Origin: an uncultured Candidatus Saccharibacteria bacterium | Lineage (GTDB): Bacteria > Patescibacteriota > Saccharimonadia > Saccharimonadales > Saccharimonadaceae | Direction of reading: 5' to 3' | Assembly (NCBI GenBank): GCA_947306745.1 | Contig: CAMZHH010000001.1 | Span: forward strand, 1,000-64,999 | Length of the DNA stretch: 64,000 nt | In this document: positions 19,676 through 61,690 of the stretch, piece after piece | Layout: every line of letters starts with the position of its first letter | Position numbering within the stretch: position 1 is the stretch's first letter | The notes under the pieces: model-generated | Seen by the model: the letters and a program-made list of their open reading frames with translations, nothing else | The model's database searches: none | Told to the model about the DNA's origin: nothing | Program-made: the position numbers and the translations under genes

Positions 19676-19769
19676 TTGTTTTTGACCTCTCTTGATATAT
19701 TTATCCTTATGTTAATTTTACCACATCCCGCTCATGTCTAAAAACCTTTTAAGTATAAATGAACTATTA

Positions 19770-26163: not shown

Positions 26164-26255
26164 AGCTCACCGCCGTTCACTACCTCTTGACTTTTTAAAG
26201 CGTTTATGCTATGCTCAACCATAGAAATCAACAAAAACAAACACAGCCGAACAAC

Positions 26256-44551: not shown

Positions 44552-44953
44552 ATGAAAAACATCATCAAAACTGCGAGCAGAGTAATGACCGGAGCAGCCG
44601 CCACCGTCACTATTCTTGCTGGTCGCGTTATGGCAACTGTTGGAAATTATGAAAACCCTGCTCAGGCTGGCGCTGAAGCCGCTCGTGCAAATGGCATGCC
44701 GGCCGAATTAGTTGGCGTTAATGGCGTTTTCACTAAGATTACCAATACGGTTCTTTATGCCGTTGGCATCATTTCCGTTATTATGCTTATTTACGGCGGT
44801 TTACGTTATGTAGTATCCGGTGGCGACAGCAAGAAAGTTACCGATGCAAAAAACACCATCATGTACGCTATTATTGGCCTCATCATTGCAATCCTTGCAT
44901 ACGCTATCGTTAACTTCGTCATCAGCGCCGTTGGTGGCGGTACCACCGTCTAA
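44552..44953 (+). CDS. VirB2/TrbC-like T4SS pilin-like protein, paralog 1
   Basis: 133 aa with an N-terminal signal-like segment and a C-terminal two-helix hydrophobic hairpin. The loop motif GGLRYVVSGGDSKKVTDAKNTIMYAIIGLII...IVNFV is shared with the six genes at 46338-49193. Confidence 0.7.
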   Translation: MKNIIKTASRVMTGAAATVTILAGRVMATVGNYENPAQAGAEAARANGMPAELVGVNGVFTKITNTVLYAVGIISVIMLIYGGLRYVVSGGDSKKVTDAKNTIMYAIIGLIIAILAYAIVNFVISAVGGGTTV

Positions 44954-44955
44954 AC

Positions 44956-45660
44956 TTATCCACTTTTTGCAATTATCATTGCGCCAACTCTAGTTATCTC
45001 TCGCTCGCAAAATCTTCGTGCAGCCTCAAGCATGCTACTTCCAGTAGTTCAAACATCATCTACTAAAATGTAGTACTTATCACAGCTTATATCTCCTTTT
45101 AAGGTATAAGCCGTTTTTGCTTGCTCTTTACGTTTATCCGCATCAGCACCAACTTGTGTCGCATTATTACCACGTACCAATAGCCGAGCGCATTCTACAC
45201 GCTCTAGGCGCGCTAAGCGCCGCACTAGCAGTCATGTATGATCAAAACCTCTTTCGCGTATGTGCTTGCTAATTGTCGGCAGGGGAACTAAAACGGCATT
45301 TTCTGGGAGCGATACGCATCGTGCTACCATTTCAGATATTATTTCGCCGCATGACCGTACAGAATTGTATTTGTAATTATTCACTAACTCCTTTAGTACA
45401 CCAATCCTTTTTCCTAAATGGAATTGCCATTTAAAGGGAAGAGGGCAGTTTAGGCATTCATTATTTCACAACAATTCGCCACACGACAAACATCTTTCCA
45501 CATGTGCCGATGTGATGTATTTTTTACAACATTCACATAGAATTCCACCATATTTTCCACAGGATAGACAGGGTTGAGGGCAAAAAATCTCACCCAAATG
45601 CCAAAATATTGTATTTTTCACAACAAAAACTCCGTTTTTCTTGATTTTAAGAGTAAACAT
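44956..45660 (-). pseudogene. comF: comF (ComFC-type amidophosphoribosyltransferase-like competence gene) with three in-frame TGA codons
   Basis: The 235-codon frame has no frameshift. It has an N-terminal CxxC zinc-finger pattern, LVPLPTISKHIRERGFDHT and the PRT motif YYILVDDV*TTGSS. TGA codons are at 45466-45468, 45232-45234 and 45049-45051, and the terminal stop is TAA at 44956-44958. Confidence 0.75.
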
Positions 45661-45708
45661 CCATATAATAAAGCTTAAGAGTGTAATTAGTGGAGGAAAA
45701 AAATTATT

Positions 45709-46224
45709 ATGGCTCGCAAACAAGACGAAATGAGCTTAGACGATGAGCTCACTGCTGCCTTCCTCGACGAGAGCAGCGAACCTGGTTTAGCAGAGGAGGA
45801 ACCGGTGGAAACTCCAGCTAGCGCTCCAGTCGCTACGGTCGAAGAAGAAACCTATATCGAAGAAGATGGCGACGGTTGGGATGATGTCGATGACAACGTT
45901 CCTGGTCAGCTTGCAGTAGATGTCTACGAAACTGCCGATAAATTAGTTATTAAAGCTCGTACTGCCGGTATCGAACGCAAAGATCTCGATGTTTCTATTT
46001 CTGATAACATCCTTACTATTTCTGGTGTTCTTAATGGTGGCGAAGACGACAAGGCTACCCAATGGCACATTCAAGAGTGCTACTGGGGTGAATTCAGCCG
46101 TACTATCGCTTTGCCAGTACAAGTTAAAGAAGATGGCGTTGAAGCCGTCCTCAAAGATGGTGTTCTTACTATTTCCTTCGAAAAGGAAAAGGTTGAAGCT
46201 CCAAAGCGCATCACCATTAACTAA
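45709..46224 (+). CDS. Hsp20/alpha-crystallin family small heat-shock protein
   Basis: 171 aa with a GGAGG RBS, an acidic N-terminus and an alpha-crystallin domain (LAVDVYETADKLVIKARTAGIERKDLDVSI...DGVLTISFEK). Confidence 0.9.
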   Translation: MARKQDEMSLDDELTAAFLDESSEPGLAEEEPVETPASAPVATVEEETYIEEDGDGWDDVDDNVPGQLAVDVYETADKLVIKARTAGIERKDLDVSISDNILTISGVLNGGEDDKATQWHIQECYWGEFSRTIALPVQVKEDGVEAVLKDGVLTISFEKEKVEAPKRITIN

Positions 46225-46288: not shown

Positions 46289-46321
46289 AAAAAATCTTCC
46301 TCGACTACCTCGAGGAAGATT
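46289..46321 (-). terminator. intrinsic terminator of the pilin gene 46338..46706
   Basis: 10-bp hairpin atcttcctcg-actacct-cgaggaagat with T4 on the minus strand. Confidence 0.7.
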
Positions 46322-46337
46322 CACTATATATAGTATA

Positions 46338-46706
46338 TTAAGCGCCAAGCTGAGTTAATACGAAGTTCGTAATAGCAAAGGCGAGGAGAACCACGATCAA
46401 ACCAATGATACCGTAAAGAATAGTGTCTTTACCTTTCTTTACTTTAGATGCATCACCTTGGGAAGTAGCATAGCTAACACCACCGAGAATAATCATAATA
46501 ACGGCAACCATACCGACTACTACATATACAGCGTTAAGGATTAGCTGAATTTGCGATTCGAGAGTAACGTTTTTATCAGTATTTGGGTTTACGCTATCGA
46601 GACCAGTCTTAGCTTTACCGGCCGCAGCAAACGTAGAAACAGCTGGAAGAGTAGCGCTAAAGACTGTAGCTGCACATCCTTTTGCGATAGTCTTAATTTT
46701 ATTCAT
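46338..46706 (-). CDS. VirB2/TrbC-like pilin-like protein, paralog 2
   Basis: 122 aa from the ATG after the AAGGAG RBS (the ORF track starts 11 codons upstream). It has a signal peptide and the C-terminal motif IILGGVSYATSQGDASKVKKGKDTILYGIIGL. Confidence 0.75.
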   Translation of the reverse strand: MNKIKTIAKGCAATVFSATLPAVSTFAAAGKAKTGLDSVNPNTDKNVTLESQIQLILNAVYVVVGMVAVIMIILGGVSYATSQGDASKVKKGKDTILYGIIGLIVVLLAFAITNFVLTQLGA

Positions 46707-46763
46707 TTTATAGGTTTTCTCCTTATCTATACTTAGCATAACATAAACGCATTATTTTCGCCA

Positions 46764-46792
46764 CAAAAAGCGCCCTTTGAGGGCGCTTTCTC
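46764..46792 (-). terminator. intrinsic terminator between pilin paralogs 3 and 2
   Basis: Hairpin agcgccc-tttga-gggcgct with T5 on the minus strand. Confidence 0.7.
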
Positions 46793-46805
46793 TTCTATGA
46801 TTCTA

Positions 46806-47312
46806 TTACGCAGCGATAGCTTGGAGTACGAAGTTGACAATTGCAAATGCAAGAATTGCAACTACGAGACCAATGATACCGTAAAGAATGGTATCTTTGC
46901 CTTTCTTGACCTTAGAAGCATCACCTTGGGAAGTAGCATAGCTAACACCACCGAGAATAATCATTACAACGGCAACCATACCAATGACGAAGATTACAGC
47001 GTTAATAATAGTCTGAACCATCGTGTTAAGGTCGTTACCATTACAGCTTTCTGGGTTAGAAGCAAGCGAACCTGCTTTTGCACAGTCAGCAGTACTTTTA
47101 CCGTAAATAGTAGTGACGGTAGCTTTTGAGCCCGTACCTTCCTTCACGGTCGTACATTTGATAGTGAAGGTCTTATCTTGCTTTGCGGAAAGGTTTGCAT
47201 ACTCACCCTTACCGAGACAATCCTTTACGGCAGCCATAGAAGGTGCTGCAATAATAAGCACTGCAAATACGGAGAGTGCCGCAATTTCAAATGCTTTTTT
47301 AAGTTTATTCAT
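46806..47312 (-). CDS. VirB2/TrbC-like pilin-like protein, paralog 3 (Cys-containing variable domain)
   Basis: 168 aa with a GAAGGAG RBS and a signal peptide. Its C-terminal motif is identical to paralog 2 over most of its length. Confidence 0.75.
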   Translation of the reverse strand: MNKLKKAFEIAALSVFAVLIIAAPSMAAVKDCLGKGEYANLSAKQDKTFTIKCTTVKEGTGSKATVTTIYGKSTADCAKAGSLASNPESCNGNDLNTMVQTIINAVIFVIGMVAVVMIILGGVSYATSQGDASKVKKGKDTILYGIIGLVVAILAFAIVNFVLQAIAA

Positions 47313-47390
47313 GTTTTCTCCTTCTTTTATAATTTTCGAAAAACCTTAACCTTATTTTAACATAAAATAATTATTTCAATACCACTATGT

Positions 47391-47702
47391 CTAAATCGTC
47401 CCCTGTAATGCTCTAATTACGAAGTTCACAATCATGAACGCAAGTAAACAAATAACTAAACCAATTACGCCAGCGATAATGGCGTCTTTACCTTTCTTTG
47501 CTTTTCCTGGATCGCCTTGAGAAGTCGTTAATTGAACACCACCGATAATAATCGCAATTACTGCAATTACCGCAAAGAAACCAGTAACAAAATTAATAAT
47601 CGTGCCTACAGAAGACTGCAAATTGCCACTTGCACCAGTACCGCCTTGCGAGGTAGTTACCTGATCTTTAATACTTGCACCAAATACTTGAATAATATTC
47701 AT
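47391..47702 (-). CDS. VirB2/TrbC-like pilin-like protein, paralog 4 (short, no obvious signal peptide)
   Basis: 103 aa with the motif IIGGVQLTTSQGDPGKAKKGKDAIIAGVIGLVI...IVNFV. Its ATG overlaps the upstream stop (TAATG). Confidence 0.7.
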   Translation of the reverse strand: MNIIQVFGASIKDQVTTSQGGTGASGNLQSSVGTIINFVTGFFAVIAVIAIIIGGVQLTTSQGDPGKAKKGKDAIIAGVIGLVICLLAFMIVNFVIRALQGTI

Positions 47703-48076
47703 TAGCCGACTGCCCTCAAAATAAAGTTAACAATTGCGTACGCTAAAATAGCTACAATTAAGCCGATAATAGCGTAGAGAATAGTATCTTTTGCTGATTT
47801 AACTTTGCCGGGATCGCCTTGCGAGGTCATATATTTTACGCCACCGATAATAATTACAATTACCGCGATGATACCCATCCAAATAAAGACAGTGCTCAAG
47901 ATATTTTTAACATGCCCCTGCAAATCTGCCTCTGTGCCACCACCGCAAAGCGTTTGATAGTTTGGCAAGTTTTTAGCCTCAGCACTATTACAAATGTCAT
48001 CAACTGCAAATGCCGAAGTAGTTCCAATCGTAATAATCGCCACTAAGGCTACTAATACCGCTAATATTCTTTTCAC
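47702..48076 (-). CDS. VirB2/TrbC-like pilin-like protein, paralog 5
   Basis: 124 aa with a signal peptide and the motif IIGGVKYMTSQGDPGKVKSAKDTILYAIIGLIV...IVNF. Its GTG start overlaps the upstream TAG by 1 nt. Confidence 0.7.
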   Translation of the reverse strand: MKRILAVLVALVAIITIGTTSAFAVDDICNSAEAKNLPNYQTLCGGGTEADLQGHVKNILSTVFIWMGIIAVIVIIIGGVKYMTSQGDPGKVKSAKDTILYAIIGLIVAILAYAIVNFILRAVG

Positions 48077-48729
48077 TACAATGCTCCTAACACAGTATTA
48101 ACAATTGCGATGGATAGAATAACAATCAATAAACCGATTGAAGCATACATAATAGTATTCTTCGCTTTCGATACTTTGCCAGGATCGCCAGTACTGGTTG
48201 CATAATAAATACCACCGATAATAATCATCGCAACCGCTACAATCGCCGCCCAAGTAAAGGCGTGGTTAAATACGTTTACAAATATATTCTTTGCACCGGC
48301 TTCACCAAGAATGCCTGTAATCGTCTTTGAAATTGTGGATGCTAAAACGGTAATTACTAAGCCAATCATGGCATTACGAATCGTGGTTTTACCCTTAGCT
48401 GCCTTCGCTGGTTCACCTTGGGAGAACATATATAAATAACCACCCCAAATCACCATCAAAATCGCAAGATAACCTACGACACCCACCACGTCACCGACAA
48501 TATTTAATACAATTGTCCAAATCGACACGGTAATTTTATCTTCGCTCTTCCAGTTGCTATCCTCAAGCAGACAAGAGCCGGATCCAGACTTGTACCATGG
48601 AGTTAGACCCATGAAATCAGCCATCGAACCGCAGTCTGCAGCGTAAGTATTTGTAGCCAATACGCCACTAAAGCTCAACGCTAATACTGCGAAGAGGGAA
48701 GCGAATAGCAAATATATCTTCTTTCTCAT
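48076..48729 (-). CDS. tandem (two-domain) VirB2/TrbC-like pilin-like protein, paralog 6
   Basis: ~217 aa with two copies of the motif (WGGYLYMFSQGEPAKAAKGKTTIRNAMIGL and IIGGIYYATSTGDPGKVSKAKNTIMYASIGL). ATG 48729 overlaps the upstream TAA (TAATG). The ORF track offers TTG 48735. Confidence 0.7.
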   Translation of the reverse strand: MRKKIYLLFASLFAVLALSFSGVLATNTYAADCGSMADFMGLTPWYKSGSGSCLLEDSNWKSEDKITVSIWTIVLNIVGDVVGVVGYLAILMVIWGGYLYMFSQGEPAKAAKGKTTIRNAMIGLVITVLASTISKTITGILGEAGAKNIFVNVFNHAFTWAAIVAVAMIIIGGIYYATSTGDPGKVSKAKNTIMYASIGLLIVILSIAIVNTVLGAL

Positions 48730-49193
48730 TACCAAACCCTTACATTAATTACCGTTAACATGCTTGTATCAGCACCAGGCAAGATAAATCCTACCAATAC
48801 CGCCGCTAATACCCACAAAACTAGACCAATCACAATCTCAAAGATACGCTTCTTCGCTTTTTCGACCTGCGCCGCATTATCTCGGGCCGTTAGCATTGTA
48901 ATACCACAGATAATTACACCAATCGTACCAGCTACGACTACACCAGCGGTCAAAATCGTAATCACAAGCTTAATTAGGCTCATTATATCGTCACCCGAAC
49001 CATTGCACATCCATGTCAGCAATGACGCACACTCACCCTCCTCAGCGGTGTCTAATGTTTTGTCCGTCGCGGTTGGAGTATCGTCGCCCGAATCCGGATC
49101 GGCATATACACTCTGTACCGATGTTACGCCTAAGCTAAAAACCGCTAGAAATGCGGCTAATACGAGGCTAATTACTTTTCGTTTTTTCAGCAT
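48729..49193 (-). CDS. divergent VirB2/TrbC-like pilin-like protein, paralog 7 (first gene of the pilin operon)
   Basis: 154 aa with a signal peptide, a Cys pair and a looser motif (CGITMLTARDNAAQVEKAKKRIFEIVIGLVL). Confidence 0.6.
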   Translation of the reverse strand: MLKKRKVISLVLAAFLAVFSLGVTSVQSVYADPDSGDDTPTATDKTLDTAEEGECASLLTWMCNGSGDDIMSLIKLVITILTAGVVVAGTIGVIICGITMLTARDNAAQVEKAKKRIFEIVIGLVLWVLAAVLVGFILPGADTSMLTVINVRVW

Positions 49194-49389
49194 TTTTTAT
49201 CCTTTTTGACCTATCTATAATAAATTATACGATATTTTCGTAAAAAATCTCTATTTACCTAAATTATAACATAAGCGATAATATAGAGGCACAAGTAACC
49301 AAGGGAAACACTTAAACACTATATCTAGCGTAGTTATAAAGCTTATGTTCGCTAAATCTAGCGGAATGTTTAGTTTTCACTTATAATAC

Positions 49390-49418
49390 TTGACTAAAAT
49401 GCTTATGTGTGCTATAAT
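49390..49418 (+). promoter_or_regulatory. sigma-70-type promoter (TTGACT-17-TATAAT) for the T4SS-like operon, leaderless geometry
   Basis: TTGACT at 49390-49395, a 17-nt spacer, and TATAAT at 49413-49418. The ATG at 49428 is 9 nt downstream with no SD. Confidence 0.7.
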
Positions 49419-49427
49419 AAAAGAGTT

Positions 49428-52139
49428 ATGGGTAAGTGTGTTAAAAACATAATCTTATCTCTGTTAGCGACCGTATTTAGCCTAGTGGCGTTCTCCGGTC
49501 CAGTTTTTGCTGTAACCCCAAATACAACCGTAAACACGGTTACTTCTTTTGCTACCGTCACGCCAAATCCAACCAACCCAGACAACCCTGATGACCCAGA
49601 AAACCCAGAAGAGGAGACCACTACAGAAGAAAATCCTTCCTGTTACGATCAAGTCGGCGGTATTGGCTGGCTTATTTGTCCTGGTACCGGCTTCCTCGCC
49701 AATGTTATCGATGGCGCTTACGATGTTCTTGAGAATCTTATCAAGGTTAATCCAATCCCAACCGATGAAGAAAGCCCAATCCATGTTGTTTGGGAATATC
49801 TCCGTAACATCACCAATGTAGTATTTATTATCTTCCTCTTGATCGTCATCTATTCTCAGCTCACTGGTTTCGGTATTAATAATTACGGCATCAAGCGTGT
49901 TCTTCCGCGCATTATTATCGCCGCCATCCTCGTAAACCTTAGCTACATCGTCTGTATCTTTGCCGTAGATATTAGCAACATCATCGGCGGTGGCCTTCGT
50001 GGCGCTCTGAATGATATTCAGCAAGCCGCTCTCACTAGCGGAAAGGTTAGCGAGGTCGCAGCGAATGCCTCTGTTGCTGGCATCGTCGCTACAATTCTTG
50101 GTATTGGCACTGTCGGCACAGTAGTAGCATTCACTTTTGCTGGTGGCCTTAGCGGTATCTTATGGTTGTTGATCCCAATCGTCTTATCTGGCGCCATCGC
50201 CATTCTTTCTGCGGTCGTCACAATGGCGGCTCGTCAAGCACTCATCTTCTTACTCGTCATGGTATCGCCATTAGCATTCGTCGCTTATCTGTTACCGAAT
50301 ACAGAGAAGTGGTACAAACGCTGGCTCAATCTCTTCGCCAGTATGCTTTTCTTCTACCCAATGTTCAGCCTCCTTTACGGCGCTAGCCGCCTCGCAGGCT
50401 TAGTAATTATTACATCTGCCACTAACTGGCTCGGCGTCGTCTTGGGTATCGCTGTAGAAGTTTTGCCATTATTTATGTCAATTCCACTCATGCGCATGTC
50501 TAATACGATGCTCGGCCGTATCGACGGTCTCATCCATCGCGCAGGCGCACCAGTTCATGGTATGGCCGTCCGCCGCGCTACCGAAGGTCAAATTTTGGCC
50601 AAACAACGCCAACTTTCTTCCACTAGCCATCGTCCATCCACTCGTCTTGCTCAATATCTCGAGCAACGCCGCTTGAACCGCAAACTCGATACCGATGACG
50701 CTATCGCCACTGGCCACAAGATGCGCATGGCTAACTATAACCGTAGTATGTACGACAGCTACGGCCGTCTCACCAACCGCGGTCTTCGCCGTTACACTAA
50801 TATTCAACGTGGCATCGATGCCGATAATCTCATCACTAAGACCGCTATCGACTTCGATGAAGGATTCGGCGATGACGGTACCGATACTCGCGTCCGCACT
50901 CGCGATCTCCAGCGCATCCGCACCGTAAACTCCGCCTTAATCCAAGGCGTTGATACGGCTCAAATTCTCAAATCTCGCCAACGCGCAGTTGAGCTCGAAA
51001 ATACTCGTAGTCGCGCTGAGCGCATCCGTAGTGAAGCAGAGAATGAGCACTCCGAAATCCATCGCCAAATTACCTCCGCATTTAATATGCGCAACACGTC
51101 AAATAACCCAGCAGAGCAACGCGCAATTCAAAGCTCTATCAATGCAACACTTTCCGATGCTATTACTGATAGCCGTAAGGTTGACGCTATCGCCAAGGGT
51201 AACTACCGCGAACTCTACGACGATATGCCAGCCGGCCACGGCCCGCAAGATAAACTCGTCGAGGCATTCGGCCAGCAAGATTACAACTCCATGGCTGCCG
51301 CTATTGAAGTTATGGCTAAGCGTGGCGACTTCAAAGATATCCAAGAAACCCTCTTCGACAACTCTGGTGCCGTTGCTGATAATATTCGCATGCAGAAACA
51401 ACTTGCCGACTCGCTTATTACTCAAAAAGCCGACGACCAGATCCTCTGGGCATACGCTAAGGCTAATATGGTTCGCCGCGGTATGAACAGCGGTGGCAAG
51501 CAAATCGCACCATTTATCGATTTCAAGACCTTTATTAATGGTGGCACCATGCCAGGCGACGTCGATGCTGACGCTATAAAGACCACTTCGCTTGATAAGA
51601 TTCTCGAAGATGTTAAGGGTGCTGGCACCACCGCAACTCAGGACCGCACGGTCTTCAAGGCTATGCTCAGCTTTATGAAGAAGGGCGAACTCTCGGTTGG
51701 TACTGTTGACAATCCAAACCTCCATATCCCAATGAAGTATCTCCGCTCAGCTGCTGTATCTGGCGCTATGGATGGTGAGCAACTTGGTACACTTAACAAA
51801 TTCATCACCTTCGGCTTCGATCCAAACGCTACAACTCAAGATGCCTTCTTTACCGCTAACCAAGCCATTGTCCAGAAGAATATCGAAAGCTTCTTCAAAG
51901 ATATGGCCGCTTCACAGCTCGTTGGCATTAAGAGCTCTACCTTTAAGTCGATGAACTCCGCAATGCTCGCTATCGATCCAGCTTCCGCTGTCACTCAGCC
52001 AAACGGTTCCGTAGTCAGCCAGCACGTCCTCGACGCACTTGCTCCACAAATCGCTGCAGTCAGCAAGCAGAACTATACGGCTCGCGGTGGCATGAACCCA
52101 GAAATCCGCGGCATGCTCAATATTCCAGTCGATCGCTAA
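49428..52139 (+). CDS. VirB6/TrbL/TcpH-like polytopic T4SS membrane protein with ~520-aa soluble C-terminal domain
   Basis: 903 aa from ATG 49428 (the ORF track start 49407 lies inside the promoter). It has a signal/TM segment, an acidic Pro/Asn-rich segment, ~7 TM helices (aa ~120-390), then a long hydrophilic region. The call rests on topology and context. Confidence 0.6.
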   Translation: MGKCVKNIILSLLATVFSLVAFSGPVFAVTPNTTVNTVTSFATVTPNPTNPDNPDDPENPEEETTTEENPSCYDQVGGIGWLICPGTGFLANVIDGAYDVLENLIKVNPIPTDEESPIHVVWEYLRNITNVVFIIFLLIVIYSQLTGFGINNYGIKRVLPRIIIAAILVNLSYIVCIFAVDISNIIGGGLRGALNDIQQAALTSGKVSEVAANASVAGIVATILGIGTVGTVVAFTFAGGLSGILWLLIPIVLSGAIAILSAVVTMAARQALIFLLVMVSPLAFVAYLLPNTEKWYKRWLNLFASMLFFYPMFSLLYGASRLAGLVIITSATNWLGVVLGIAVEVLPLFMSIPLMRMSNTMLGRIDGLIHRAGAPVHGMAVRRATEGQILAKQRQLSSTSHRPSTRLAQYLEQRRLNRKLDTDDAIATGHKMRMANYNRSMYDSYGRLTNRGLRRYTNIQRGIDADNLITKTAIDFDEGFGDDGTDTRVRTRDLQRIRTVNSALIQGVDTAQILKSRQRAVELENTRSRAERIRSEAENEHSEIHRQITSAFNMRNTSNNPAEQRAIQSSINATLSDAITDSRKVDAIAKGNYRELYDDMPAGHGPQDKLVEAFGQQDYNSMAAAIEVMAKRGDFKDIQETLFDNSGAVADNIRMQKQLADSLITQKADDQILWAYAKANMVRRGMNSGGKQIAPFIDFKTFINGGTMPGDVDADAIKTTSLDKILEDVKGAGTTATQDRTVFKAMLSFMKKGELSVGTVDNPNLHIPMKYLRSAAVSGAMDGEQLGTLNKFITFGFDPNATTQDAFFTANQAIVQKNIESFFKDMAASQLVGIKSSTFKSMNSAMLAIDPASAVTQPNGSVVSQHVLDALAPQIAAVSKQNYTARGGMNPEIRGMLNIPVDR

Positions 52140-52192
52140 AATCATATATTATACTGAGCCAAAAATCATTTTGTTTATGTTAAAATGAAAGT

Positions 52193-53392
52193 ATGGCTCA
52201 GTATAAGGTCCCACAAGATGTTGAGGCGGACGATAAACTTCTTGGTCCGTTTACTTTTCGTCAGTTTGTGTATCTTATGATTATCGGCGGTCTTGTCGCC
52301 ATCGGATTTTTGCTCTGGCAAATTTTCCCACTATTAATTATTATTTTGATTCCACCGATTCTTTTATTAGGCGTTCTCGCCCTACCATTTAAGAAAGATC
52401 AGCCGATGGAGACTTATCTTTCTGCTATCGTTTCGTATCACTTGAAGCCTCATACTCGCATCTGGGAGCCAGGCGAGCCAGAGGCTACTATTGTTATTAC
52501 CGCACCGAAGAAAACCGATGAGGTTCACTTGAAGGGAATTAGCCAAGAGGAAGCTACTCATCGTCTGTCTTTCCTTGCCGATATCGTCGATACGGAAGGT
52601 TATGCTATTAAAGGCGGTGTCAAAGAGGAAATCTACGCTGAGGCAAATGCCACAAAAGATATCTTCGAAATGGCGCAAACTTCCACCCTTAATCAGGCAT
52701 TACAATCCAATGCTACTTCACGTCATGACGAGTTAGTCAATCAAATGCGCGAAGCTATTGAACGCAATAATTCATTCAATGCCGCGAATGGCCCAGCCAT
52801 CAATCATCATTTCAATAATCCTCAAGTTCAACCACTTAATCAGCCTACACCATATCCAAGCACTCCAGCTTATAACCCAATGCCAACTGTTGCTCCTATG
52901 CCAACGGTTACACCTATGCCGACCGTAGCACCACAACCAACTATGGATCAAGCGCCTCTTTCTGCCTATGGCGGAAATAATCTAAACACTGATCCATACC
53001 AAAATTCTTCAGCTGTCATTCAGCCAGATCTTCCATTGCCAGAAGCTACTGCTCCGCCGTCTTATGATGAGCAAATCGCCGAATCTAGCGAATATTTACC
53101 AGAAGACGAAAAAGAGCGCCTCGAAGGAAATGGCCCTTCTGAGCACCATACAGAAGAGGAGCAACCAATCTCCGAAGAAGCACAACAAGATGTAGATTAT
53201 TACGATAATACCGATGCTGACCAAGTCGACGAGCCACAGCCAGAACTGGAACCAGAGCCAGAACCAAATCAGCAAATGATTGACCTAGCTAATAATCCTG
53301 ATTTCTCGATTGAAACTATTGCGCAACAAGCCAATCGTATCAATAACGAAGAAAACAATAATAAAGACGAAGTTTACGTATCATTACATTAA
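52193..53392 (+). CDS. PrgI-family (VirB3-like) T4SS membrane protein with long Pro-rich/acidic C-terminal extension
   Basis: 399 aa. The N-terminus MAQYKVPQDVEADDKLLGPFTFRQFVYLMIIGG... plus two TM helices matches the PrgI family pattern. Confidence 0.65.
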   Translation: MAQYKVPQDVEADDKLLGPFTFRQFVYLMIIGGLVAIGFLLWQIFPLLIIILIPPILLLGVLALPFKKDQPMETYLSAIVSYHLKPHTRIWEPGEPEATIVITAPKKTDEVHLKGISQEEATHRLSFLADIVDTEGYAIKGGVKEEIYAEANATKDIFEMAQTSTLNQALQSNATSRHDELVNQMREAIERNNSFNAANGPAINHHFNNPQVQPLNQPTPYPSTPAYNPMPTVAPMPTVTPMPTVAPQPTMDQAPLSAYGGNNLNTDPYQNSSAVIQPDLPLPEATAPPSYDEQIAESSEYLPEDEKERLEGNGPSEHHTEEEQPISEEAQQDVDYYDNTDADQVDEPQPELEPEPEPNQQMIDLANNPDFSIETIAQQANRINNEENNNKDEVYVSLH

Positions 53393-53401
53393 GGAGTTAA
53401 C

Positions 53402-54271
53402 GTGCAACCACAATATCAATACCCAAATCAAACTCCGCAAATGGGCGGACAAATGATGGCCCCAATGCAAGCTGGCCAAACTCAAATGCAGCCACAAGCT
53501 AATAATCAAATCGCTACCGCCCAACCACAGCAAGGTCAAGGTCAGCCGAATGCTATCCCAGTCCCATCCAAAGAAAACCCAAACTCTACCCAGGCTACAT
53601 TATTAATATCTGAGCTTCGTGACTCTATGGTCATTATGAAAGATGGTTCTTTCCGTGCAGTGGTTGCCTGCAAATCCATCAACTTCGACCTTATGAGCGA
53701 GACTGAAAGGGAAGCTGTTGAGTATTCGTACCAAAACTTCCTTAACTCCTTAAACTTCCGTATTCAAATCCTCATCCGCTCTCAGCGCGTTGATATTGGC
53801 CCATATATTGATCGTCTCTCCGAACTTCGCCGTAATAACGACAATATGCTTCTTGGTATCTTGATGGACGATTATATCAACTTCATCGATATCCTTTCTC
53901 AGGAAGCGAATATTATGGATAAATCATTCTTTATCGTAATTCCATATTACACTTCCGCTGAAGCAGAAAAGGCTATGGAAGCTACAAAAAACTTCTTTAA
54001 GTCATTTAGTAAAACTAAAGCTCCAGCCATCAACCGCATTGACCGCGCCACCTACGATAAAGCCGTTACTGAAATTAATAACCGCGTTGAAGCTGTCATT
54101 TCCGGCCTCTTCCAGATCGGTATTCACTCAGTTCGCCTCAACACTAAGGAACTTGGCCAGCTTTATTACAACTTCAATAACCCAGATACAGCCGTTCGCG
54201 AACCACTCGGAGACTTTAATAAACTTGCGCATCTTTATGTAAAGAAAGGCGAAAAGGGAGAACAACAATAA
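53402..54271 (+). CDS. hypothetical T4SS-associated protein resembling a VirB4 N-terminal domain, Gln-rich N-terminus
   Basis: 289 aa with an AAGGAG RBS and a GTG start. The segment ISELRDSMVIMKDGSFRAVVACKSINFDLMSETEREAVEYSYQNFLNSLNFRIQIL follows the pattern seen at the N-terminus of Gram-positive VirB4 homologs. Its stop overlaps the next ATG (TAATG). Confidence 0.5.
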   Translation: MQPQYQYPNQTPQMGGQMMAPMQAGQTQMQPQANNQIATAQPQQGQGQPNAIPVPSKENPNSTQATLLISELRDSMVIMKDGSFRAVVACKSINFDLMSETEREAVEYSYQNFLNSLNFRIQILIRSQRVDIGPYIDRLSELRRNNDNMLLGILMDDYINFIDILSQEANIMDKSFFIVIPYYTSAEAEKAMEATKNFFKSFSKTKAPAINRIDRATYDKAVTEINNRVEAVISGLFQIGIHSVRLNTKELGQLYYNFNNPDTAVREPLGDFNKLAHLYVKKGEKGEQQ

Positions 54272-56076
54272 TGGCAAAACAACCACAACTTAGCGCCGCC
54301 GATATTGCCGCGCAAGCCCAACTTCAAGAAGAAGTTGAAATCCAGAAGGCGTTCGAAACTGGTATTACTACGCTTCGTGATCTTATTTCGCCATCTTCCA
54401 TCGAAATCCACTCCGACTATTTCCGTCTCGGTACAAAATATGGCCGCACTATTTATGTTTACGGTTACCCACGCTCACTTTATACCGGCTGGCTCAGCTC
54501 GATTATTAACATCGATGAAGTTCTCGATATTTCTATGTATATTTATCCAGTCGATACCACCGTCGTCATGAAGAACCTTCAAAAGAAGGTGACTCAGCTC
54601 GAGGCTAGCGCAAACATCAACAGTGAAAAAGGTAAGATTCGCGATCCAGAGCTCGAAGCCGCCATCTCCGATGCTGAGGAACTTCGTGATCAACTCCAGG
54701 TTGGTGCTGAGAAATTCTTCCGTTACGGTCTCTATGTAACCATCTATGCCGACTCGCTTGATGAGCTTCAGTTCGTTCAACACAAGATTGAGAATATTTT
54801 CGGTCAGCAAATGGTCTTCAGTAAAGTTGCTAGCTCGCAGCAAGAGCAGGGCATGAATACCACTATGCCGCAATGTACCGACCAATTACAGATTCGCCGT
54901 AACATGAACACGGGCGCTATTTCCACTAGCTTCCCGTTCACCTCAGCCGACCTTACTCAGGAAAAAGGCATCCTTTACGGCATTAATATGCACAACAACG
55001 GTCTTGTCATCTTCGACCGCTTCTCACTAGAAAACGCCAACATGGTCGTCTTCGCTAAGTCCGGTGCAGGTAAATCTTTCACCGTCAAGCTTGAAGCGCT
55101 TCGCTCTATGATGGTTGGTACCGAAATCTTGATTATCGACCCAGAAAACGAATATCAAAAACTCTGCGACGCTGTTGGTGGTGCATATATTCGCTTGAGC
55201 CTTAACTCTGACGTACGTATTAACCCATTCGACCTACCAAAGGTTGTCGACTCCGAAGATGCTAACGATGCACTTCGCGCTAATCTCGTTACACTCCACG
55301 GTCTTTTCCGTTTGATGCTTGGTGGCGCCGCTGGCGGTACTGCTCAGCTCACACCAAATGAGGAAGCCGATCTCGACCAAGCCTTAATCGATACTTATGC
55401 GCGTGCCGGTATTACTAACGATCCACTCACGCATACTTCCACACCGCCTACCATTATTAACTTGTTTGATACTCTACTTCATATGGGCGGCACCGGTCCA
55501 AGCCTCGCTCAGCGTCTCCGTAAATATACCACTGGTACTTTCGCTGGTATCTTCTCACAACAATCCAACATCGATATCAATAACCAGATGGTCGTCTTTA
55601 ACATTCGTGACCTCGAAGATGAACTCCGTCCAGTCGCTATGTATATCGTACTTAGCCACATTTGGAACATTACCCGTGCCAACCAAAAGAAACGCCTTCT
55701 CCTCGTAGATGAGGCCTGGCAGTTAATGAAATACGAAGACTCCGCAAACTTCCTCTTTAGCCTTGCGAAGCGTGCCCGTAAATATTATCTCGGTCTTACT
55801 ACAATTACACAGGACGTTGAGGACTTCATGTCGTCCAAGATGGGACGCGCCATCGTGGCTAACTCTTCCATGCAGCTACTTTTGAAGCAGTCCGCATCCG
55901 CCGTCGATGTCTTGTCTGACGTCTTTAAGCTCACTGATGAGGAACGCAAACGTCTATCAAACTTCCCAGTTGGTCAAGGTCTCTTCTTTGCCGGTCAAAA
56001 CCACGTCCATATTCAAATCGTGGCGTCCGAAACTGAGGAAAGCCTCATTACGACGAATCCGAACGCTCGCAAGTAA
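54271..56076 (+). CDS. virB4: VirB4-family T4SS ATPase
   Basis: 601 aa with Walker A KSGAGKSF and Walker B LLLVDEAW. The N-terminal ISPSSIEIHSDYFRLGTKYGRTIYVYGYPRSL pattern is typical of VirB4/TrbE/CagE proteins. Confidence 0.85.
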   Translation: MAKQPQLSAADIAAQAQLQEEVEIQKAFETGITTLRDLISPSSIEIHSDYFRLGTKYGRTIYVYGYPRSLYTGWLSSIINIDEVLDISMYIYPVDTTVVMKNLQKKVTQLEASANINSEKGKIRDPELEAAISDAEELRDQLQVGAEKFFRYGLYVTIYADSLDELQFVQHKIENIFGQQMVFSKVASSQQEQGMNTTMPQCTDQLQIRRNMNTGAISTSFPFTSADLTQEKGILYGINMHNNGLVIFDRFSLENANMVVFAKSGAGKSFTVKLEALRSMMVGTEILIIDPENEYQKLCDAVGGAYIRLSLNSDVRINPFDLPKVVDSEDANDALRANLVTLHGLFRLMLGGAAGGTAQLTPNEEADLDQALIDTYARAGITNDPLTHTSTPPTIINLFDTLLHMGGTGPSLAQRLRKYTTGTFAGIFSQQSNIDINNQMVVFNIRDLEDELRPVAMYIVLSHIWNITRANQKKRLLLVDEAWQLMKYEDSANFLFSLAKRARKYYLGLTTITQDVEDFMSSKMGRAIVANSSMQLLLKQSASAVDVLSDVFKLTDEERKRLSNFPVGQGLFFAGQNHVHIQIVASETEESLITTNPNARK

Positions 56077-56087
56077 TATCAAAGCAC

Positions 56088-56118
56088 TAAATCTCCCTAA
56101 AAATAGGGAGATTTTTTG
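56088..56118 (+). terminator. intrinsic terminator after virB4
   Basis: Hairpin atctccct-aaaaat-agggagat followed by T6. Confidence 0.8.
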
Positions 56119-56190
56119 TTGTAAATATTACAACATTATCCCTTAAAAAAGTTGCGTATTTCAGATAAATATTATAAAATATATACATCT

Positions 56191-59100
56191 ATGGTCTCCA
56201 CACCAAATGACGGTCGCTATCGCGGCAAACATGATCCATATAATAATATGGAAGAGGCGAGTATTCGTCCTAGCAACATCGCTCGCCAAGAGCTATCTGC
56301 CGCAGAAAAAGCCGCTACGAAAAATCCTAGCGACTCCGCCTCGTCAGGCCAAAAATCTTTTACTTCAAATCGTATTACGCGCTCACTTCAACAATCCGAA
56401 AATAACCAAAAATCCCAACTCCAGAATCAATTCCGCAACTCCGTAAGAGGGAAGAATGAGCCGAAAACTACCGGACGCACACGTTTCTTAAAGAAAGTTG
56501 CCCCACTTACCATTATTGTTGGTGTTTTGTTTGGTGGTGGTGCGTTTTTCTATGGTGCTCAATCCTTGCTTGCACCACATCTCTCCGCTTTATACACTAA
56601 TGCTACCGACTTACAGTTTACTTCCTACTCTATGCGCAACTCGCGATTAATTTCCTATATGATTAATGGCGGCGGACAAGTAAAAATTAGTGGTTTCACT
56701 ACTAAATATGCCGCTTTTTCGCCATATCTAAAAAGCCGCTTAGCCAAAAATGGTATCGAAGTTGGACATCTCGACTCGTCTGGCGCTTTTCAGTCCGGCC
56801 AAATCGGCGGCAAAACCGTTTTAAAATTCGAAGATAAAATTATCGACGCGGGTTCATTCCAAACCGAATTCGCAAATAATGCTAATTTTCGCGACGCCTA
56901 TTACCAAGCAAAGCGTGGTAGAATTGCTGGTTTCTTTGATGATTCAGCCGATTATTACTACAAGAAGAAAGGCGCTACGCGTGATATCTTTGACCAATAT
57001 AAGTCCACTGGCGATAACGATGCTGATACCGAAAAATTCGAAAGTACAGTTTCTGAACGTGTCACTGGCTCCGACGCATCCGTAAATACCGTTCGTCATG
57101 AGACTGACGAAGAAACCGGCGAAGACCATATTCGCGAAAATGGTGAAGATATCGACACCACCAGAGTTTCCGGCGACACGCCAGAGTCAAAAGCGCGCGC
57201 CATGGTAAATAATATTGCCGGTAAAGTTTCGTCAATTGGTGTACCAGTTTGTTCTGCTTTGCGTATCGCAAATATTGCCGCCGTCACAGTTTCGGCGTAT
57301 CAAATATATCAATCCATCGCGTACTTCTTAAGCCTCATGGAACCGATTAGTAAAATGATGGCCGGCGAAGGTGAAGCTTCGGCGATTAATGAAAACTTAA
57401 ACTTCCTTACAACTTCAACTTATTCAGATGTTAATTATGTAGATAGCCAAGGCAATCAACAGACTAAACAAGTTTACGGTTCACCAGTTGAATCGGCTGG
57501 CGCTAAACTTGTTATGGGTAACACTTTATCGAAAAAAGAAGATTACGAACCATATTCCTTCGATAATATTACTCGCGCCGCAACAACTATTGCAGTTTCT
57601 ACTGGCGTCACTAATACTGCCTGCGCTGGCGTTATGGCTGCTTCTGCAATTATGTCACTCTCCGCAACCGCAATTCCTGGCGGTAAACTCGCTACTTTCA
57701 TCGTTGGCGCCATTGCGCAAACTGTCGGTGGTATCGTTTTGACAGGCATTGTCGCTGCAATTGTCAGTGCGATTATTCCATATGTCGCTAAAATCTTCGC
57801 TAGCAACATTTTTGAAACCTACACTGGTATCCCAGCTGGCGAGCTATTCTCACAAGGTGCCGCCACCGCTAACTTTAATCTCGCTACACAGGGCAGTGCT
57901 TATATGCCATCTGATAAATCTGCTGTAAAAACCCAAAATCGCAACACTACTCTCGCGCTCGCCCAGGAAGCTGAGCTTGATCGTCTCCATCGTAGCCCAT
58001 TTGACGCAACGAGTCCAAACACCTTCCTCGGCTCACTACTATCCAACTTCACTTATTTATCCTCCAGTAATAATGCAATGAGCAATATTGCAAACTTCAC
58101 AAACGTAGTTGGTAAATCTATCCGTAAAATTAATACTGTTTCTGCCGCTGACGAAGAATTAACTTACATTTCCAATAACCAAGATTGTACTTTCTTACCA
58201 GGCGCCGTCTGCGATATGTATGGCTTGCCAATTCCGACTTCTGATTATTCTACCATCGACGTTTCACCAGATGATCCCAACTATATTGCAGCCATCTCTC
58301 CAAATCTCGATTCAGACGGCAAAATTAAGGAAGGCTCCGAATTAGCGAAATTTATTAACTTCTGCGGCAATCGTCAATCTCCATGGGGCGTCAAAGATGC
58401 AAATATCCTCAATGCGCTTCAAACTGATTTCGGCATTGTCGGAAACAACCTTCCAGTTGTGAATGACATTGTAGACGTTATCAATGCCGCCGAAGATGTT
58501 GCGAATGAAGGTTGGGCTACCGGTTCAGTTTGTATGAATTCCGCAGATAATCCACGTTGGGATAGTGAATTCAAATATTATCAACGCTACATTGAAGATA
58601 TGCGCATCTTATCCAGTATGGATGGTAGTAATAATACTTCCGCAAGCGCATCAGGTGGCCTTAATGATGATTTAGCTCAAAAAATTGTCGAACATTTTAA
58701 AGATTCATCCAACGACGATAAATGGACCCCATCTCTAACTAAATGGAACTGTGTTAGCCTGAGTACTTATTTCGTGCAATTATTTACAAACATTGACGGT
58801 AAATCCGCCCTAAACGGCGGCGGTAAAAAGGGATGTATCTCTTGTAGTAATGGTGTTACAGTAGCCGATGGTCTAGCCGCCTATGGCGTACCAGTCGGCA
58901 CCGAGCCTCGTCCATATTCAATTTTTAGTGTCTCCGGCCCAAGTGCCTATGCATCAGGCGAAGCAGGGCACACGGGTGTAGTATTAGCTGTTAATGGTAC
59001 TGATTTAACCATTATCGAAGCTGGTTGGGGCGCCGATGGCTATGCTGCCGTTCGCCACTACGACCTAAATCAAATGCAAGATCGCAAATTCGCTTATCTT

Positions 59101-59487
59101 GAAGATTATATGGACTGGGATGCATTATCAAAAGCTACCGGAACCAAAGTAACGAATAATATTTCATCTACCGAACCAACCACTCCAAGTAATCCAGTTC
59201 TAGCATACCTCCAAGAGTATGATGCCACTCATCCAGAAGATAATTCTTTTGAGGGGATCCTTGCACGCATTTCTGGTCAAACAAAAGACGATATCGCTAT
59301 GATGCTCGAATTCGTGGATTATAGTACAAAGATTGCTAATTATGATCCATCTACACGCTATGTTTTCGGCCAAAACGAAACGTCAGAAACGCAAATATCC
59401 TTCGAGGAAGAAAACTTACCAAATATTACTGCCGTAATTCGTAATTCCAATCGTATTTTTATCGATAAGAGGAACTACGTTTTATGA
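56191..59487 (+). CDS. large polytopic membrane protein with C-terminal CHAP peptidoglycan hydrolase domain (VirB1/PrgK/TcpG analog)
   Basis: ~1098 aa from ATG 56191, which lies 10 nt after TATAAAAT. The ORF track start 56152 overlaps the -35 region. It has TM helices at aa ~115-140 and a cluster at ~360-560. The CHAP motifs are KWNCVSLSTYFV (Cys) and GHTGVVLAV (His). Confidence 0.7.
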   Translation: MVSTPNDGRYRGKHDPYNNMEEASIRPSNIARQELSAAEKAATKNPSDSASSGQKSFTSNRITRSLQQSENNQKSQLQNQFRNSVRGKNEPKTTGRTRFLKKVAPLTIIVGVLFGGGAFFYGAQSLLAPHLSALYTNATDLQFTSYSMRNSRLISYMINGGGQVKISGFTTKYAAFSPYLKSRLAKNGIEVGHLDSSGAFQSGQIGGKTVLKFEDKIIDAGSFQTEFANNANFRDAYYQAKRGRIAGFFDDSADYYYKKKGATRDIFDQYKSTGDNDADTEKFESTVSERVTGSDASVNTVRHETDEETGEDHIRENGEDIDTTRVSGDTPESKARAMVNNIAGKVSSIGVPVCSALRIANIAAVTVSAYQIYQSIAYFLSLMEPISKMMAGEGEASAINENLNFLTTSTYSDVNYVDSQGNQQTKQVYGSPVESAGAKLVMGNTLSKKEDYEPYSFDNITRAATTIAVSTGVTNTACAGVMAASAIMSLSATAIPGGKLATFIVGAIAQTVGGIVLTGIVAAIVSAIIPYVAKIFASNIFETYTGIPAGELFSQGAATANFNLATQGSAYMPSDKSAVKTQNRNTTLALAQEAELDRLHRSPFDATSPNTFLGSLLSNFTYLSSSNNAMSNIANFTNVVGKSIRKINTVSAADEELTYISNNQDCTFLPGAVCDMYGLPIPTSDYSTIDVSPDDPNYIAAISPNLDSDGKIKEGSELAKFINFCGNRQSPWGVKDANILNALQTDFGIVGNNLPVVNDIVDVINAAEDVANEGWATGSVCMNSADNPRWDSEFKYYQRYIEDMRILSSMDGSNNTSASASGGLNDDLAQKIVEHFKDSSNDDKWTPSLTKWNCVSLSTYFVQLFTNIDGKSALNGGGKKGCISCSNGVTVADGLAAYGVPVGTEPRPYSIFSVSGPSAYASGEAGHTGVVLAVNGTDLTIIEAGWGADGYAAVRHYDLNQMQDRKFAYLEDYMDWDALSKATGTKVTNNISSTEPTTPSNPVLAYLQEYDATHPEDNSFEGILARISGQTKDDIAMMLEFVDYSTKIANYDPSTRYVFGQNETSETQISFEEENLPNITAVIRNSNRIFIDKRNYVL

Positions 59488-61688: not shown

Positions 61689-61690
61689 AA

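Follow-up and report, generated by a model that had tools for sequence, protein, structure and literature searches.

We analysed a stretch of 64,000 nucleotides (referred to hereafter as the window; contig CAMZHH010000001.1 of assembly GCA_947306745.1) from the genome of an uncultured Candidatus Saccharibacteria bacterium, which contains an array of pilin genes next to a type IV secretion system (T4SS). In the list of open reading frames (ORFs) of the window, six pilin genes (A to F) follow one another on the minus strand at positions 46338–49193, and a seventh gene (G) is located separately on the plus strand at positions 44552–44953. The block is divergent to an adjoining T4SS operon of the Gram-positive type, whose Pfam matches include a VirB4-type ATPase (PF19044, AAA_10; 104 bits) and a PrgI/VirB3-like protein (PF12666). 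Both of these genes lie at most 7 kb from the pilin genes, the six tandem genes being 5 kb from virB4, and this is the context expected of a VirB2-type pilin. A Patescibacterial VirB2 array has been defined as at least two PF18895 or PF04956 genes, in tandem or with one non-pilin gene between them, near virB4 (PMC12102498), and genes A to F fall within this definition. The other large ORFs of the window are housekeeping genes, among which neither a relaxase nor a coupling protein was seen, and VirB5 was not found at the Saccharibacterial T4SS locus.

For comparison, we used 80 loci obtained by a VirB4 protein scan of species-representative genomes (VirB4 identity 84–99%). The record titles of nearly all of them name Candidatus Saccharibacteria, Nanosyncoccaceae or Nanosyncoccus, and rumen or intestinal samples of ruminants are the source of many. 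In the window itself, the GroEL encoded near the array belongs to a protein cluster with the name Candidatus Saccharibacteria. Two loci with the same layout of T4SS and pilin array (L059 and L061) were deposited as 'Clostridiales bacterium' and 'Candidatus Nomurabacteria bacterium', which are probably bin or taxonomy mislabels. The T4SS operon is conserved across the 80 species loci, and the tandem pilin arrangement is also present in 60 or more of the related loci. The exact protein sequences of A to G were called on 5–168 independent public contigs, and this recurrence indicates that the pilin ORFs are real genes of the sampled population.

The original prediction, made from the letters of the DNA, had described these genes as VirB2-like pilin paralogs. 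All seven proteins exceed the gathering score of the Pfam family T4SS_pilin (PF18895, 26.6 bits), with 29.2 bits for A, 75.0 for B (in two stretches), 50.1 for C, 48.3 for D, 44.6 for E, 50.2 for F and 44.4 for G; the last value substantiates the eighth hairpin domain that had been announced on the plus strand. For TrbC/VirB2 (PF04956, gathering score 27.9 bits), the best match is that of E (27.7 bits, E=3.3e-6), whereas A, C and D reach 22–24 bits (E=4e-5 for A) and B, F and G have no match; precomputed PF04956 matches exist on some database homologs. The best NCBIfam match of all seven is NF045849 (Mbov_0395 pilin-like conjugal transfer protein), and four of them (F, D, C and B) exceed its 40-bit cut-off. 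The eight hairpins, two of which (B1 and B2) are in B, align over ∼75 residues and share the two-helix architecture and the loop motif that had been proposed, GG(V/I)xYxTSxGDxxKxxKxKxTIxYxxIGL…IVNF, A and B1 being the most divergent. Two long hydrophobic helices joined by a short polar or basic loop, as in VirB2-type pilins, are present in the AlphaFold2 (AF2) models of D and B and as hydrophobic segments in the sequences; the net charge of the loop is +1 to +2, and 0 in G. Judged from hydrophobicity, A, B, C and E have clear hydrophobic N-terminal segments with Ala-X-Ala-like sites; those of F and G are weaker, and D has none. The cysteine pairs noted earlier in N-terminal regions exist in A, B and C, and E contains four cysteines. 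Sequence and profile searches of the PDB with the pilins gave only chance matches to profilins. The pilin assignment is carried by the sequence family and the genomic context, not by structure: with seven of seven proteins above the PF18895 threshold, near-threshold PF04956 matches and adjoining genes for VirB4, PrgI/VirB3 and cell-wall hydrolases, the VirB2-like reading was upheld, and we regard the identification as a T4SS pilin array as almost certain.

The paralog groups A, B1, B2, E, F and G each have orthologs across species, those of A being confined to the closest species. Orthologs of E were found in all nine close species and orthologs of F in eight of them. Pilin D has many homologs of ∼100 aa, and its length equals that of SEML1_0016 of Southlakia epibionticum ML1; its AF2 model (predicted local distance difference test score, pLDDT, 77) consists of a hairpin with helices 28–59 and 65–99. 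Pilin G is 64–95% identical across species, with a rate of non-synonymous substitution (dN) of 0.06–0.09 in the hairpin, and its position is that of the non-essential SEML1_0024. Two starts were corrected in the course of the analysis: B begins at ATG 48729 (217 aa), not at TTG 48735, and F begins at ATG 46706 (122 aa), behind AAGGAG, not at 46739. The coordinates of all features are listed in Table 1.

Gene B had been predicted to encode a head-to-tail fusion of two pilin domains, and both the two PF18895 stretches and the AF2 model agree with this. In the model (76 homologs, pLDDT 75.8), a signal-peptide helix and a Cys/Trp region are followed by two successive helical hairpins (helices 63–101/107–142 and 149–178/183–216) with six residues between them, and hhalign matched a profile of ∼100-aa single pilins to B2 with a probability of 99.8%. 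Among the best 120 homologous clusters of B, 112 have two domains and 8 have three. We also made a census of the 60 species loci with a complete upstream flank: a double pilin is present in 46 of them and a triple one in 2, whereas 12 have single-domain genes only. Several of the loci with single-domain genes encode the distinctive B1-type hairpin in a gene of its own (∼140 aa), with a ∼100-aa pilin gene only 7–9 nt further on, which indicates that fusion and fission have both occurred. A full HMMER scan with the single-pilin profile yielded 66,854 family representatives (50% identity); most of the top 150 had at least two hairpins, and relatives with 6, 8, 10, 11 and ∼17 tandem hairpins were found; the 6-, 8- and 17-hairpin sequences, which were inspected, have one N-terminal signal peptide each. 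One six-hairpin protein is encoded within a five-gene pilin array. The contig that encodes the 17-hairpin protein (1775 aa) also carries genes for ribosomal protein L39e and Cas4, with no T4SS genes in view, and the presence of L39e suggests an archaeal origin.

Four junctions of the array with 1-nt stop/start overlaps had been claimed; three of them exist (TAATG at 48729 for A/B, TAGTG at 48076 for B/C and TAATG at 47702 for C/D), but the fourth was a miscount, since D and E are separated by a gap of 78 nt and E and F by a gap of 99 nt. Each overlap is preceded 8–12 nt upstream by a GGAG-like Shine-Dalgarno site (TAGGAG at the TAGTG junction). As far as can be read from the sequence, the overlaps and Shine-Dalgarno sites of A to D form the classic layout for translational coupling. 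In 60 or more related loci, the first genes are most often joined by overlaps of -4 and -1, and the last one or two genes stand apart by gaps of 66–110 nt.

The internal terminator proposed at 46764–46792 was corroborated by its folding energy, its z-score and its U-tract. A GC hairpin with a U-tract is located after E in nine of nine close species, with unrelated sequences, and this recurrence at the same place argues that a terminator after E is under selection. A motif TTATGT(T)A…, which resembles an extended -10 element (TGnTATAAT), is present 29–70 nt upstream of the starts of A, E and F and is kept in sister species, and G carries a close variant of it (TTATGTATAAT). The 8-mer TTATGTTA occurs eight times in the window, against 3.2 occurrences expected, and 2 of 100 shuffles reach eight. 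Its copies (at 19707, 23024, 29785, 40280, 46739, 47358, 49267 and 52175) are apparently mostly upstream of ORF starts, for example those of the valyl-tRNA synthetase gene (23104) and of PrgI (52193), and it may be the preferred extended -10 element of this organism. Taken together, these signals would define four transcription units, namely A-B-C-D (possibly reading into E), E, F and G. More than one transcription unit would also fit a transcriptome report on TM7x, in which stable symbiosis raises the expression of only half of the array genes. Phase variation by inversion was considered and rejected, as no inverted repeats flank the promoter regions. On the other side of the control region, the GTG start given by the ORF finder for the VirB6-like gene (49407, 910 aa) is inside the near-consensus TTGACT-17-TATAAT site, which has an upstream TG; the true start is more likely ATG 49428, which would leave a very short leader.

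E and F were known to share a perfectly identical stretch of 47 nt (46450–46496 = 46918–46964), for which recent gene conversion had been suggested. The identity is exact, and the stretch is the core of a 114-nt tract over which E and F are 93% identical, whereas the flanks are 54–56% identical. In a Sawyer/GENECONV-style permutation of polymorphic sites, the E–F comparison was significant in the window (p=2e-4) and in the related loci L003 (1e-4), L002 (4e-3) and L012 (1e-4); the same test on three ortholog pairs gave two non-significant values (p=0.17 and 0.58) and a marginal one (0.03). In the core (alignment positions 36–134), the distance between E and F of one genome (window, L002 and L003) is 0.04–0.08, compared with 0.11–0.19 between orthologs, and this relation is reversed in the flanks (0.34–0.37 between the paralogs, 0.24–0.34 between orthologs). 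Likewise, 4–7 of 33 third-codon positions of the core differ within genomes and 10–13 between orthologs. Moreover, derived residues co-vary: 'GDAS…TILY' is found in both E and F of the window and 'GDPG…TIMY' in both genes of L002 and L003. Gene conversion is thus significant in the window and was repeated independently in sister species, and the population contains both recombinant alleles and a deletion product. Conversion homogenizes the hairpin core and not the variable N-termini.

These recombinants were recovered among the 90% identity clusters, which include E alleles with the C-terminal helix of F (P0051 and P0055) and an F allele with the C-terminal tail of E (P0071). P0055 is present on three contigs from three independent assemblies, where the E/F hybrid gene is directly followed by Hsp20. 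It corresponds to a deletion variant of the same species, with a five-gene array, a 468-bp deletion and the crossover inside the shared E/F tract. An assembly artefact caused by collapse of the repeat is unlikely, since the assemblies are independent and one of them used k=141, longer than the 47-nt core. At codon 77 of F (46476–46478), the window has Val77, as in E, an allele found on 5 contigs, and 129 contigs have Ile77. As Ile77 would break the perfect run, the 47-nt identity is a feature of a minority allele, and Val77 possibly results from a very recent micro-conversion.

Between species whose VirB4 proteins are 93–97% identical, the hairpins of the array pilins are 44–79% identical and their N-terminal regions mostly 25–54%, with up to 66% in E; the hairpin of G is 86–91% identical over the same range. 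Synonymous sites are saturated between species (dS > 1), so that dN/dS ratios are only rough and positive selection is not claimed. At the DNA level, the genes around the array, virB4 among them, likewise share no more than ∼70–79% identity with those of the nearest species. A separate history of the array by horizontal gene transfer was therefore rejected, the flanking genes being diverged in DNA as well and the pilins evolving much faster at the protein level; the divergence of the pilins reflects relaxed or diversifying protein evolution.

Table 1. Features of the pilin array and of the adjoining T4SS operon (positions in the window unless a locus is named)
Feature	Position	Strand	Remarks
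Pilin G	44552–44953	+	133 aa; solitary, slow-evolving paralog beyond Hsp20, adjoining tRNA-Ser
Terminator after F	46296–46330	-	Hairpin with U-tract; -21.3 kcal/mol, z = -5.2
Pilin F	46338–46706	-	122 aa; start MNKIKT; PF18895 50.2 bits
Conversion tract in F	46401–46514	-	Counterpart in E: 46869–46982; 114 nt long, 8 mismatches
Promoter-like motif of F	46735–46746	-	TTATGTTATGCT; conserved in relatives
Intrinsic terminator after E	46764–46792	-	-19.1 kcal/mol, z = -3.9, U-tract
Pilin E	46806–47312	-	168 aa; putative signal peptide, then 68-aa N-terminal region (four Cys) and hairpin; own Shine-Dalgarno site
E/F hybrid gene	L081:194–700; L082:770–1276; L083:231–737		Equivalent to window 46338–47312
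Promoter-like motif of E	47354–47365	-	TTATGTTAAAAT; conserved in relatives
Pilin D	47391–47702	-	103 aa; without classical signal peptide; PF18895 48.3 bits
Pilin C	47702–48076	-	124 aa; GTG start, putative signal peptide, Cys29/Cys44, hairpin; PF18895 50.1 bits
Pilin B	48076–48729	-	217 aa; fused double pilin; PF18895 75 bits in two stretches
Pilin B, hairpin B2	48079–48285	-	
Pilin B, linker		-	6 aa, between B1 and B2
Pilin B, hairpin B1	48304–48543	-	
Pilin B, Cys-pair/Trp region	48544–48639	-	
Pilin B, putative signal peptide	48640–48729	-	
Pilin A	48729–49193	-	154 aa; putative signal peptide, acidic N-terminal region with Cys55/Cys63, divergent hairpin; first of coupled block
Divergent control region	49194–49427		Between pilin block and T4SS operon
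Extended -10-like motif	49263–49274	-	TTATGTTATAAT; in divergent control region, upstream of A
TTGACT-17-TATAAT	49390–49418	+	Promoter-like site in divergent control region
T4SS operon	49428–62623	+	Order: 903-aa polytopic, PrgI/VirB3-like, 289-aa, VirB4, CHAP, lysozyme-like, PEGA
903-aa polytopic protein	First in T4SS operon	+	VirB6-like only by synteny with SEML1_0013
PrgI/VirB3-like protein	52193–53392	+	Pfam PF12666
289-aa protein	Between PrgI and VirB4 genes	+	By gene order
VirB4 ATPase	54271–56076	+	Pfam PF19044
CHAP hydrolase	56152–59487	+	Pfam match
Lysozyme-like protein	59484–61688	+	Pfam match
PEGA protein	61682–62623	+	Pfam match

By gene order and gene sizes, the array is the positional ortholog of the six-pilin array of S. 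epibionticum ML1, and the gene order matches SEML1_0005–0024. In ML1, six PF18895 genes (SEML1_0014–0019) are all essential by transposon sequencing (Tn-seq; GD/ES/ES), and a further pilin, SEML1_0024, is non-essential (Wang et al. 2023, Cell; PMC10633639). The order of the T4SS operon equals that of SEML1_0013–0005, and the two loci share the succession of PEGA, lysozyme, a gene of CHAP size (3.3 kb), VirB4, a small gene, PrgI, VirB6-like, six pilins, Hsp20, tRNA-Ser and the extra pilin. Gene sizes are similar, including that of a 103-aa pilin without signal peptide, and so are the tight early overlaps and the larger gap before the last gene (SEML1_0015 and 0016 overlap by 4 nt, and gaps of 5, 20 and 83 nt follow). 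However, ML1 is an oral isolate of another family, whereas the present array belongs to a metagenome-assembled genome of gut or rumen Nanosyncoccaceae. Moreover, ML1 has, by gene sizes, apparently separate genes of 185 aa and 103 aa with a 4-nt overlap where the two hairpins are fused here in the 217-aa B.

Some further observations concern the surroundings of the array. Between Hsp20 and pilin G, at the place of a 675-nt comFC-like gene of S. epibionticum (SEML1_0021, K02242), the minus strand of 45049–45723 contains three short ORFs, which are in different frames. The first of these ORFs has CxxC pairs and a weak match to a double zinc ribbon (E=0.039), and the equivalent region of L002 is likewise split, into two ORFs; the region may be a decayed or frameshifted comFC. 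Elsewhere in the window, a 1727-aa ORF (14139–19322, minus strand) has no Pfam match at E<=0.001, a 383-aa ORF (26211–27362) has no Pfam match, and a 404-aa ORF (27363–28577) has only a weak, sub-threshold match to DUF5881.

Arrays of this type have been described since 2018, and the locus adds nothing to their catalogue. Four to six small VirB2-related proteins with signal peptides, encoded beside VirB4 and VirB6, were noted in Saccharibacteria by McLean et al. (2018, bioRxiv 10.1101/258137), and a later survey covering 383 assemblies of Patescibacteria reported 441 arrays, each with 2–11 pilin genes, with a mean within-array identity of 25% and a maximum of 54% (Quiñonero-Coronel et al. 2025, Microb Genom; PMC12102498). 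Like the present one, those arrays consist of tandem, divergent PF18895/PF04956 genes near virB4, are abundant in Saccharimonadia and have no relaxase or coupling protein nearby. However, the main text of that survey mentions neither fused pilins nor gene conversion; the conserved double or triple fusion, the poly-hairpin relatives, the core-restricted conversion in the 93%-identical E/F tract and the deletion variant are absent from it.

The pilins also resemble VirB2, TrbC and TraA of the T-pilus and F-pilus (PF04956), with which they share a small two-helix hairpin, a short basic loop and the association with VirB3, VirB4 and VirB6 homologs; a putative signal peptide, as on those pilins, is present in most of them. 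The Gram-negative systems use one pilin gene, whose product forms a homopolymer with phospholipid, with a VirB5 tip and in a diderm envelope, whereas seven paralogs, fused forms and a monoderm envelope are found here. The protein family of the best NCBIfam match (Mbov_0395/MMCAP2_0565 of the integrative and conjugative elements, ICEs, of Mycoplasma) belongs, as here, to a monoderm T4SS context. A protein of the Mbov_0395 type is encoded by a single gene on a mobile element and is used for conjugation; the present array, in contrast, is chromosomal and multi-gene, and neither a relaxase nor a coupling protein was seen in the window. The virB2 families of Anaplasma/Ehrlichia and Bartonella, an analogy cited in PMC12102498, are likewise tandemly amplified and diverged T4SS pilin genes of a host-dependent bacterium. 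However, they are thought to be expressed alternatively for antigenic variation, whereas the early genes of the present array are translationally coupled, some are fused and their ML1 counterparts are all essential. Type IV pili and the pseudopili of type II secretion have a layout of major and minor pilins. As an analogy only, they are alike in having a coupled block of low-copy related subunits together with separately transcribed genes suited to high expression; their fold and assembly machine, however, are unrelated, since a type IV pilin combines a single N-terminal helix with a globular head and is assembled by PilB/PilC instead of VirB4/VirB6.

We consider that this locus is a VirB2-like pilin array of a chromosomal T4SS of the Gram-positive (MPF-FATA-like) type, whose paralogs are probably non-redundant subunits of one heteromeric conduit or pilus. 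Non-redundancy is indicated by the old orthologous groups across species and by the overlaps with Shine-Dalgarno sites. For the heteromeric nature of the assembly, taken by itself, we see the chances as even. The original prediction had spoken of a heteromeric or variable surface filament; this remains something that we infer, and the fusions, the coupling and the essentiality of the six ML1 genes favour 'heteromeric'. The filament, the heteromeric packing and the roles of major and minor subunits would follow a scheme of this kind. The hairpin loop, short and Lys-rich, would be cytoplasmic by the positive-inside rule, so that both termini would face outward, and most paralogs would combine a Sec signal peptide with a fast-evolving, often Cys-bridged N-terminal ectodomain. 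The VirB4/VirB3/VirB6 machine would extract the hairpins from the membrane and build from them a conduit or short pilus that crosses the wall toward the host bacterium. A, B, C and D would be translated from one mRNA, in a ratio fixed by the 1-nt overlaps, and may serve as initiators or adaptors present in few copies. E and F, the putative bulk subunits, would each have a promoter and a terminator, which would allow different, probably higher, expression levels, and G would be a separate accessory copy. The covalent fusion of B1 and B2 would fix two different hairpins as neighbours, and short-tract conversion would keep the E/F hairpin core, the presumed packing module, homogeneous while the exposed N-termini diverge.

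Following 'Rosetta stone' logic, the fusion of different hairpins suggests that they are neighbours in one assembly. A more specific proposal, which we put forward only tentatively and hold to be somewhat less than evenly probable, is that evolution has repeatedly hard-wired neighbouring hairpins by fusion within a VirB2-type tube, a heteropolymer with defined positions, in which conversion keeps the packing core of the bulk subunits common. To our knowledge, characterized conjugative pili are homopolymers of one VirB2. If true, the heteropolymeric tube would be an architecture without precedent among T4SS pili.

Several observations weigh against a heteromeric conduit or pilus of VirB2 type. 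The best PF04956 score, that of E, is 0.2 bits short of the curated cut-off, though its E-value is significant, and hhalign aligned the short-pilin profile with Agrobacterium VirB2 (sequence checked against 8cue) in register but with a non-significant probability of 3.9%. Foldseek comparison of the AF2 models of B and D with the PDB gave only generic helical matches (best E 0.11 and 0.76) such as syntaxin, 14-3-3 and ATP synthase subunit c, the last being the best match of the single-pilin model (E=0.76), and no conjugative pilin. On such predicted models Foldseek appears uninformative for or against VirB2 homology, since a simple hairpin carries little signal and cannot be told from generic membrane hairpins. 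The structures therefore speak neither for nor against the generic membrane anchor that the original prediction had named as its refutation. A general sigma-70 promoter scan of the sequence was not above chance; the promoter motifs are evidence at the level of a consensus only, and we relied on the motif that is positionally conserved across species. Species differ in the size of the array, which has 2 to 7 genes (3–8 hairpins), and a five-gene deletion variant exists within this one, so that not every paralog is indispensable everywhere. In the Tn-seq data of ML1, the essentiality of upstream genes could partly be due to polar effects. Finally, no VirB2-type filament has been reported for any Saccharibacterium in the literature searched, and the filaments purified from another bacterium of the Candidate Phyla Radiation (CPR) are unrelated Pam pili with an immunoglobulin (Ig) fold; the preprint 'Novel Pilus System in CPR', which describes these Ig-fold pili, was accordingly rejected as a precedent for a filament.

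The paralogs could also be interchangeable major pilins, each able to homopolymerize, which would form a repertoire for different host strains or for evasion of defence, with recombination shuffling the cassettes. This was proposed for the virB2 families of Anaplasma/Ehrlichia and Bartonella and is the reading suggested in PMC12102498. It is in accordance with the N-terminal ectodomains being the fastest-evolving parts (25–66% identity where VirB4 has 93–97%), with the copy number of 2–7 genes between species, with the conversion, unequal crossing-over and hybrid alleles of E and F in the population and with the promoters and terminators that E and F possess. However, conversion acts in the opposite sense, homogenizing the conserved core and leaving the variable N-termini unshuffled, and the paralogs form old groups with cross-species orthologs rather than products of rapid birth and death. 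Interchangeable pilins would hardly be translationally coupled, as A to D appear to be, or covalently joined as different hairpins in most species; moreover, the surroundings of the promoters revealed no invertible or phase-variable element, and in ML1 all six array genes are essential in one host and one culture condition. We therefore consider a repertoire of alternative pilins unlikely.

Another possibility is that there is no filament, and that the hairpins are parts of a T4SS channel or stalk in or just outside the membrane, anchors of ectodomains, or effectors that are processed and released. The fold is a generic one for a membrane hairpin, with ATP synthase subunit c as its nearest PDB match, and in NCBIfam the strong match leads to a pilin-like Mycoplasma ICE protein; we know of no description of conjugative pili in the wall-less Mycoplasma. 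According to the literature, Gram-positive T4SSs are normally without pili, no pilus has been reported here, and the array of TM7x is labelled 'putative effectors' or 'Sec-secreted array'. Poly-hairpin proteins of 6–17 units would also be awkward to fit into a thin helical pilus. On the other hand, PF18895 belongs to a pilin clan and the TrbC/VirB2 matches are near the threshold, the part that is conserved and homogenized is the hairpin and not the ectodomain, and D has almost no ectodomain to display. Gram-negative VirB2 is required for both the pilus and the channel, and an assembly without a filament therefore overlaps with the heteromeric conduit or pilus rather than excluding it. We judge this possibility quite improbable.

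Three features of the locus are informative beyond the catalogue of such arrays. The conserved fusion of two, elsewhere three or more, different hairpins speaks for contacts between the paralogs within one assembly. The opposition of a coupled block and individually transcribed genes predicts which subunits are minor and which are major, and the recurrent conversion confined to the E/F hairpin core maps the part that must stay compatible. Fusion, operon layout and conversion can each be tested in the genetically tractable S. epibionticum, which makes the question of a heteromeric T4SS pilus in these bacteria more testable.

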